A stretch of DNA of 64,000 bases from a virus. The position numbers and the translations under genes are program-made. Below, piece after piece: positions 47,406-47,762 of the stretch. Under the pieces are notes generated by a model. It had not been told where the DNA came from. It ran no database searches and saw nothing but the letters and a program-made list of their open reading frames with translations. Each line of letters opens with the position of its first letter. The first letter of the stretch is position 1. The DNA is taken from the IMG/VR virus record IMGVR_UViG_3300037628_000326, positions 4,645-68,644 of that record, one strand, 5' to 3'.

Positions 47406-47762
47406 CTAAACACGGTCAGGGCTGCCCCCACCCCCGACCGATCTCCGTGCGCCCTCGCTCGAATAGAATTCATTGATGCCGGCCTGCTCGACGCTGTCGT
47501 AATTCAACGTCATCTCCAAGGTATCACCGAACGCCCGATTGAACACGTTGGCTGCCATGACCTCCCTAGTCTGCATCATCGACCTGGCCAGCGCCGCGGC
47601 CATGCGCTGTCCATCCATGCCTGGCGTGGCAAGCGCGTAGGTCTTGTGCGTGTACCCCATCGGTTGCCACTCGTTGGCTGACAGATAAGGATTCGCCGCG
47701 CCTGGCAAGGCAGCGCTCACCGCGGCAGCGACCGCGCCCTTGATGAATGTGCGCCTCTTCAC
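47406..47762 (-). CDS. Tat-signal protein built from major-capsid fragments (protein A)
   Basis: GTGA-coupled start, (M)KRRTFIK plus hydrophobic helix; YTHKTYALA, AAALARSMMQTREVMAANVFNRAF and LNYDSVEQAGINEF match segments of the MCP at 35273-36187. Confidence 0.75.
   Translation of the reverse strand: MKRRTFIKGAVAAAVSAALPGAANPYLSANEWQPMGYTHKTYALATPGMDGQRMAAALARSMMQTREVMAANVFNRAFGDTLEMTLNYDSVEQAGINEFYSSEGARRSVGGGGSPDRV

Follow-up and report, generated by a model that had tools for sequence, protein, structure and literature searches.

A phage gene next to the large terminase joins a Tat-type leader to pieces of the major capsid protein

The gene A locus

Gene A encodes a 118-residue protein (P0001) in which a twin-arginine (RR) leader, of the kind associated with the twin-arginine translocation (Tat) pathway, precedes copies of segments of a phage major capsid protein (MCP). 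The gene lies at 47406..47762 on the minus strand of the window, by which we mean the whole 64,000-nucleotide stretch analysed here, corresponding to bases 4645-68644 of the 68,644-bp virus record IMGVR_UViG_3300037628_000326, for which the completeness rating is 99%. The phage's own MCP (P0002, 304 residues), representing the family from which the pieces were copied, is encoded at 35273..36187 on the same strand and matches PF25209 (E 1.3e-13), PF10124 (E 9.1e-6) and phrog_371 (E 1.8e-15). Loci of related phages are labelled L0xx and homologous proteins P00xx throughout.

The Tat-type leader spans residues 1-23 of A (47694..47762, minus strand, as are all segments of the gene), with the motif KRRTFIK, an Ala-rich hydrophobic stretch at residues 6-19, Pro20 and a possible small-residue site at G21-A22-A23, and is followed by a linker module shared with several homologues (residues 24-36, 47655..47693). 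Residues 37-45 (47628..47654) copy MCP strand 78-86 with 7/9 positions identical, and residues 51-78 (47529..47612), containing the motif ALARSMxQT, copy the long MCP helix 103-130 with 15/28 identical; both counts had been given in a preliminary description of this DNA and were correct on recounting. Residues 86-99 (47466..47507) are a possible remnant of MCP helix 164-177, non-significant when taken alone, and residues 100-118 with the stop codon (47406..47465) form a C-terminal tail of the EGARRxVG...SPDR type, present in 28/68 homologues.

The GTG start codon (47762-47760) overlaps the TGA (47761-47759) of an upstream 83-residue open reading frame (ORF) as GTGA, and the TAG stop (47408-47406) is separated from the ATG of the large terminase gene (TerL) at 47403 by 2 nt, as expected from the preliminary description of a coupled start and a gene abutting TerL. 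We take GTG as the start because the 118-residue form is present letter for letter in the ESM Atlas, and because the leader opens 66 of the 68 homologues. A read-set look-up for window positions 45800-49300 listed no RNA set; four DNA runs labelled marine sediment metagenome share 99% or more of the words sampled, and this uncultured marine-sediment phage may have come from them.

Similarity to the major capsid protein

BLASTP aligns residues 37-82 of A with residues 78-134 of the MCP, with 24/57 positions identical, a single 11-residue gap and an E value of 8e-10. The Smith-Waterman score of the pair is 97, compared with a mean of 30.5 (sd 4.6, maximum 47) for shuffles of A, none of 1000 reaching 97, and no other among the 26 large window proteins scores above 40. 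The core of A stands far above the shuffled controls that the preliminary description had named as its test. When a profile built from 31 family members was compared with one of 14 MCPs, the probability was 98.8% and the E value 4.5e-17 over MCP residues 75-133. Judged by these alignments, the homology between the core and the MCP is real. A tblastn search with A across 50,697 phage records returned a sole match (E 9e-5), which lies within a Mu-GpT-like head gene from an Alcaligenes phage.

The preliminary description also proposed a third and a fourth similarity, to MCP residues 164-180 and to the MCP C-terminus, neither of which, taken alone, exceeds chance. The best local alignment of A 79-101 falls at MCP 164-176 and that of A 98-118 at MCP 294-303, with 539 and 548 of 2000 shuffles respectively equalling the scores, and the profile alignment leaves both segments uncovered. 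An MCP origin for them is possible, the piece equivalent to MCP 164-177 being clearer in gene B (described below) and in P0071 than in A. The linker at residues 24-36 has no detectable relative in the window (score 17, reached by 1814/2000 shuffles). In total, around 46 of the 304 MCP residues are represented in A. There is no PF25209 match to A itself, and one of 31 family members matches that model (E 9.6e-4).

A had been described as a collinear, internally deleted copy of the MCP, which is apt for its first two segments: these are collinear with the MCP apart from the 11 deleted residues, and homologues such as P0056 and P0062 keep the undeleted stretch. The description fails in two other respects, in that A is not a copy of the present MCP gene, and in that the MCP pieces are shuffled across the family as a whole.

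A modular family behind one leader

A word-indexed search recovered 68 homologues of A with 37-100% identity, all metagenomic, and when 1.84 billion representatives were searched exhaustively with a profile, 203 matched at E<=1e-3, of which 49 reached E<=1e-10. Among the 136 newly found representatives 108 carry the RR leader, the remainder being mainly MCPs or MCP fragments and short gene calls. Family members share the leader and a strand-plus-helix core, with invariant residues R3, R4, F6, G9, V15, P20, Y37, A57, L58, A59, S61, M62, T65 and E67, the helix segment (ALARSMxQT) being the most conserved block. Around these, a copy of MCP 132-150 stands ahead of the core in 34/68 homologues and a copy of MCP 49-68 in 7/68, some members carry copies of MCP 157-179 or modules unrelated to the MCP, including a Cys/His-rich one, and members end in one of two C-terminal tails.

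The window MCP is matched by 83 of 85 unique family sequences at E<=0.05, with the MCP, A and B the only window ORFs matched; the two remaining sequences are a second RR-leader ORF type found in L085 and L105. At least two MCP matches are present in 40 sequences, and in 39 of these the matches are out of MCP order, so that the family, as read from these alignments, is a mosaic in which conserved MCP pieces follow one leader in shuffled order.

Gene B (51505..51867, minus strand) is a second RR-leader protein with other MCP pieces in scrambled order, equivalent to MCP 138-179 (E 5e-5), 49-68 (E 0.002) and 3-31 (E 5e-6) in pairwise comparisons. Since some homologues of A carry B-type modules, A and B belong to one modular superfamily. 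A third type (type C), present in relatives and absent from this genome, comprises 18 homologues in which a variant RR leader is followed by the MCP C-terminus, its profile matching MCP 277-302 with an E value of 8.1e-12 and some members also carrying MCP 240-258. Type C has the leader alone in common with A; one example (L103:843-1046, plus strand) lies directly before an A-type gene at 1043-1360. Over the whole genome of this phage, A and B are the only RR-leader capsid-fragment genes.

Two of the additional modules are described here for their own sake. In P0020, P0066, L091:858-1211 and P0018 the Cys/His-rich module (C-x2-C ... H ... C) lies between the leader and the capsid strand, and from its residue pattern could be a metal binder, which would suit Tat export. 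A 'D-T-G-I-F' module (L097:7168-7518, L092:967-1305, P0070) has weak PHROG matches to virion structural and tail-fibre proteins (E 0.012-0.09), and presumably resembles tail-fibre N-termini.

Searches for wider forms of the family were largely negative. With the family alignment as query, 28 of the 29 loci examined were full-length or contig-truncated MCP ORFs and one was a small RR protein. No longer fused forms were found at E<=1e-3, which is weak evidence given the search tool, and no genuine RR-leader genes were found in 79 MCP-centred loci of other phages, which may stop short of the TerL region. PHROGs gave no match for A, B, the fn3 protein described below or the neighbouring genes, apart from the upstream 83-residue gene, itself phrog_3555. 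We also considered a wider 'mimic island' and rejected it, as A and B alone among the 38 small minus-strand ORFs at 47.4-54.5 kb beat reversed and shuffled controls. A small ORF at window 50521-50796 (minus strand) has no TerL match at E<=0.1, with reversed and shuffled controls reaching E 0.009.

The twin-arginine leader

Tat signals follow the consensus S/T-R-R-x-F-L-K, and the leader of A conforms to a twin-arginine pattern with K2-R3-R4-T5-F6-I7-K8 followed by the Ala-rich stretch and Pro20. The motif RRxF[IL][KQLR] occurs within the first 16 residues of 65/68 homologues, and the Pfam model TAT_signal (PF10518) matches 23 of 31 family members at E<=0.01, which bears out the earlier recognition of a twin-arginine leader in A. 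The mean Kyte-Doolittle value for residues 6-19 of A is 1.8, milder than the 2.24 found for the Sec-type signal on the fn3 protein encoded nearby. A itself scores 19.8 bits (E 7e-4) against TAT_signal, for which the cut-off is 22.7, and 15.6 against TIGR01409, for which the cut-off is 16.7; P0071 is a tested member that exceeds the TIGR01409 cut-off. Scanning genome and metagenome contigs with the back-translated leader pattern recovered, besides phage genes, one Rieske iron-sulphur protein and one beta-propeller protein on cellular contigs, and since the beta-propeller protein with the same leader pattern also scores just 20.4, scores of this size are usual for the short TAT_signal model.

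The leader is near-invariant over ~19 residues across members, and this conservation is at the protein level, with several synonymous codons used per position, in loci that were themselves selected by the leader pattern. Such near-invariance, together with the scores of A below the curated Tat cut-offs, might be explained were the leader not an export signal at all, but a conserved hydrophobic helix for protein contact, targeting A into the prohead for example. We regard this as improbable, given that RR-x-F-[IL]-K, the Ala-rich stretch and the closing Pro recur together in 65/68 homologues, that TAT_signal recognises most members tested, and that the same pattern heads cellular Tat-type proteins. 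One leader type does resemble the MCP N-terminus, with the type-C-like leader of P0046 and P0065 aligning gap-free with MCP 4-19 (score 35, shuffle p 0.01), a hint of a possible origin of the leader in the capsid N-terminal arm. However, this was the one leader of 52 tested to reach p<=0.05, and chance could explain it. Were the leader derived from the arm in this way, the ancestor of the family would be an internally deleted capsid gene.

Selection, age and relation to the phage's own capsid protein

Compared with four relatives, A shows dN/dS values of 0.28-0.62, the L087 comparison, for instance, yielding 30.6 synonymous differences (72 sites) and 43.4 non-synonymous ones (213 sites). The equivalent dN/dS values are 0.33-0.49 for B, 0.09-0.14 for TerL, 0.10-0.13 for the portal gene, 0.03 for the MCP and 0.04-0.22 for the upstream 83-residue gene, and by this measure A is under selection yet fast-evolving. 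No frameshifts or stops were found among 23 locus-derived genes. The turnover is most evident in L087, the MCP of which is 98.7% identical to that of this phage, whilst its version of A shares only 56% identity and is built of other modules.

These values bear on whether A is a gene at all. One recorded gene call, P0005 (84 residues), begins at the internal Met35 of A, as might be expected of a decaying duplication or a mis-called, functionless ORF. We consider that explanation scarcely credible, as a family of 68 homologues and 203 representatives keeps the frame and the leader, its dN/dS stays below 1, and its position before TerL is conserved. A is thus, as first supposed, a maintained gene rather than debris.

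Over the 46 codons of A that align with the MCP gene, 72/138 nucleotides are identical and 6/24 codons for the same residue are identical, with blastn finding no match between the two genes. A is not a recent copy of the MCP gene, the synonymous sites appearing scrambled. Recent gene conversion from the MCP was also considered and rejected, a blastn comparison of 28 small genes with 79 MCP loci and three MCP genes giving nothing beyond short matches confined to the helix motif (29-71 nt, 71-87% identity). Nor does the family, by sequence comparison, track the cognate MCP: in record G001 (TerL ~28% and MCP 38% identical to those of this phage), which provides the sole comparison outside the close relatives, the RR protein scores 37.4 bits against the window MCP and 28.5 bits against its own.

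An old origin, the failure to track the cognate MCP, the high dN/dS and the gain and loss of modules would all be expected of an exapted relic, in which a passenger descended from the MCP now performs a task unrelated to its capsid likeness, as a generic small envelope protein such as a lysis or exclusion factor. The presence of tails and modules unrelated to the MCP, and the lack of a predicted fold, are also in keeping with such a relic. We think it unlikely nonetheless, since the leader is repeatedly followed by one or another of several MCP pieces, and since residues of the helix that are invariant in the MCP stay invariant in a family otherwise 37-77% identical to A. The family residues A57, L58, A59, S61, M62 and T65 fall at MCP-invariant positions (A109-S113, Q116-K118), whilst E67 aligns with MCP E119, which is not among the MCP invariants. 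That the helix invariants are mostly those of the MCP suggests a shared constraint rather than drift.

Structure predictions

The AlphaFold2 (AF2) model of A, built from the family alignment, has a pLDDT of 50.8 and contains only the leader helix and helices at 51-62 and 66-78, from which the passenger probably does not fold alone. A three-helix model of a 118-residue protein falls short of the complete, capsomer-building HK97 fold. The AF2 model of the MCP is itself poor (pLDDT 51.7), with a low confidence helix at 102-128; a Foldseek search of the PDB with this model gave no match at E<=1e-3, the weak top rows being HK97-type capsids and encapsulins, and a PDB sequence search gave 0 matches. 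With the MCP model poor and the PDB searches empty, the naming of MCP strand 78-86 and helix 103-130, which we take to be HK97 elements, is based on Pfam and general knowledge. The ESM Atlas provided no usable feature matches, all structure rows having TM < 0.5.

A therefore resembles the HK97-fold MCPs of the Phage_capsid_4/Mu gpT-like type (PF25209, PF10124) in its strand and helix and in their invariants, and differs from them in that no family model matches it, in that it cannot form the fold, and in that the pieces are reordered in its relatives. That the strand-plus-helix core is what A keeps, and that the gene sits with the morphogenesis genes, raises the question of whether A modulates or poisons capsid assembly, with the fragment co-assembling with or capping the MCP, either its own or that of a co-infecting relative, in the manner of the truncated capsid proteins of retroelements, and the leader acting as a tether or a disposal route. 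Ty1 p22 and SaPI Ccm are truncated, capsid-derived antagonists of assembly. RTL8, which reportedly acts against PEG10, offers a further analogue, and such antagonists share with A a short or altered capsid relative encoded beside the full-length protein. Unlike A, they occupy the same compartment as the capsid, possess a foldable domain and have no export leader. The family's failure to track the cognate MCP, an export-type leader that would take the protein away from the assembly site, and the poisoning of its own capsid that would result make this role for A decidedly unlikely. A co-fold of the MCP with A 21-118 gave a score of 0.00 and a mark of 0.32, and was counted neither for nor against binding.

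Gene neighbourhood in this and related phages

The minus strand of the window carries a leftward block in the order small terminase, ~7 kb of small genes, large terminase, peptide deformylase, portal (phrog_1216) and MCP. The small terminase gene (TerS, 54542-55261) matches PF03592 (E 1.2e-8), TerL (45799..47403) matches phrog_38 (E 1.1e-66), and the peptide deformylase gene (42687-43214) matches PF01327 (E 2.4e-32). Immediately upstream of A, the 83-residue gene (47759..48010) encodes two hydrophobic stretches and belongs to phrog_3555, for which no function is assigned. A secreted-type fn3 protein (48690..49247; PF00041, E 1.2e-5) with a hydrophobic N-terminal signal and no RR motif is encoded ~1 kb upstream of A. 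Several of the small genes in the ~7 kb between TerS and TerL encode hydrophobic N-termini, and the region also holds a PAPS-reductase-like protein (49715-50524; phrog_424, E 3.7e-41). Downstream of the head and tail genes lies an ORF of 4442 residues at window 5405-18733. All of these features are on the minus strand.

In close relatives (L084, L086, L087, L088 and L089; TerL 89-92% identical) a homologue of A always lies directly before TerL. In L087 and L088 it is separated from the phrog_3555 membrane gene by extra genes that differ between the two (L087:11996-12342, minus strand; L088:7380-7786, plus strand). One such insert codes for a protein with membrane and Cys-rich parts, which distant phages encode just ahead of the RR gene. 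Among distant phages (TerL 25-33% identical), L085 and L098 have the order membrane/Cys-rich gene, RR gene and Sec-signal fn3 gene, and the RR-fn3 pair is preserved in L091 and L096 behind a Cys-rich gene. The fn3 genes L085:2656-3258, L091:1201-1827, L096:1014-1640 and L098:1090-1722 each begin within the end of the RR gene, with TerL and portal genes downstream of the pair in L085, L091 and L096. This linkage of the RR gene with envelope-directed genes is our main reason for placing the action of A at the envelope.

Discussion

The architecture seen throughout the family is one conserved Tat-type leader joined to a short and, by prediction, poorly self-folding passenger drawn from the most conserved segments of an HK97-type MCP. 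We propose, with a probability of roughly 40%, that A, an accessory gene and one member of a large and modular phage family, encodes an envelope-targeted capsid look-alike; the functional steps of this proposal are ones that we infer. A would be transcribed with the packaging and head genes, and its leader would bring it to the host Tat translocon, leaving it either periplasmic or anchored to the inner membrane. There it would sit in the envelope alongside the products of neighbouring genes, namely the Sec-signal fn3 protein and small membrane proteins, and its capsid-like strand and helix might mimic the capsid and so engage a partner able to recognise those elements of it. Candidate partners are the linked fn3 protein and some component of a related phage entering the cell, and the outcome could be a function in phage-phage or phage-host conflict, such as exclusion.

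Several points weigh against this proposal. The partner of A is hypothetical, and a Tat system in the host is assumed. Both curated Tat cut-offs exceed the scores of A, with Tat routing predicted from the leader sequence, and the leader, being conserved well beyond what is usual for signal peptides, could be a binding helix instead. An A-x-A cleavage site conserved across members was not found, A having the possible site G21-A22-A23, and an uncleaved anchor is therefore as likely as a cleaved signal. The low confidence of the AF2 model of A is a further difficulty, as is the fn3 linkage, which is missing in L093 and spans 4 kb in L097. Finally, late co-transcription with TerL is suggested only by the 2-nt spacing, and a promoter scan gave results at chance level.

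Known Tat signal peptides, small Tat substrates and uncleaved Rieske-type anchors (PF10518, TIGR01409) resemble A in the K-R-R-x-F-I-K motif, the weakly hydrophobic Ala-rich stretch and the closing Pro. Unlike those substrates, A is phage-encoded, scores below the curated models with no conserved cleavage site, and carries a short capsid mosaic without a predicted fold in place of a cofactor enzyme.

Capsid proteins are also read by bacterial immunity, with CapRel and Lit both MCP-sensing defences, and with the T4 Gol peptide acting with Lit, and CapRel, providing examples of capsid-derived triggers. The known capsid sensors are activated by capsid protein binding. What host sensors read is the fold of the capsid or short conserved segments of it, and A itself has kept conserved pieces. 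Avs7 also senses MCPs (PMC13581612). A could accordingly serve as a cytoplasmic immune decoy, its capsid-like peptides binding host sensors that detect the MCP and either blunting them or allowing the leader to drag them to or through the translocon. The retention of the most conserved MCP segments favours such a decoy, as do the likeness of the family to an MCP consensus without tracking of the cognate MCP, the fast turnover of modules beside an MCP that hardly changes, the coverage of different MCP parts by the paralogues A, B and type C, and the siting of A among late genes. We nevertheless consider a decoy quite unlikely, since a look-alike could itself trigger capsid sensors, an export leader fits poorly with a cytoplasmic role, and the neighbours of A are envelope proteins. 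Furthermore, within the 47.4-54.5 kb island, A and B are the only small ORFs whose likeness to a structural protein rises above noise. The known triggers of immunity also differ from A in being parts of a real capsid protein, with no separate gene and no leader, and no sensor is linked to this phage.

A broader, and more speculative, interpretation is that RR-leader proteins are a general and as yet unnamed phage device, in which linear motifs that the phage's own structural proteins cannot change are displayed on a Tat leader and intercept whatever reads them, be it a host capsid sensor or a part of a competing phage, the reader then being removed or immobilised at the Tat translocon or envelope by hitch-hiking. 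The leader of such a device may stem from the MCP N-terminal arm, which one leader type resembles. We hold this interpretation to be a long shot.

Whether A is an envelope-targeted look-alike, as we prefer, or otherwise, the RR-leader capsid-fragment family was found in no paper, a literature search, with supplementary files outside its scope, giving no description of a Tat leader fused to capsid fragments. Pfam and NCBIfam recognise the leader alone, PHROGs recognise nothing in A, and one family member weakly matches a capsid model. The family illustrates how a new gene can be built, with short pieces of an essential gene shuffled behind a targeting leader. As it is large (203 cluster representatives), modular and under selection, it also provides many natural variants with which to probe which capsid motifs matter. 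If A and its relatives are indeed exported capsid look-alikes, they would represent a rare case of the use of the Tat pathway by a virus, and a new use by phages of copies of their own structural motifs, whether for immunity evasion, the exclusion of rivals or the remodelling of the envelope.

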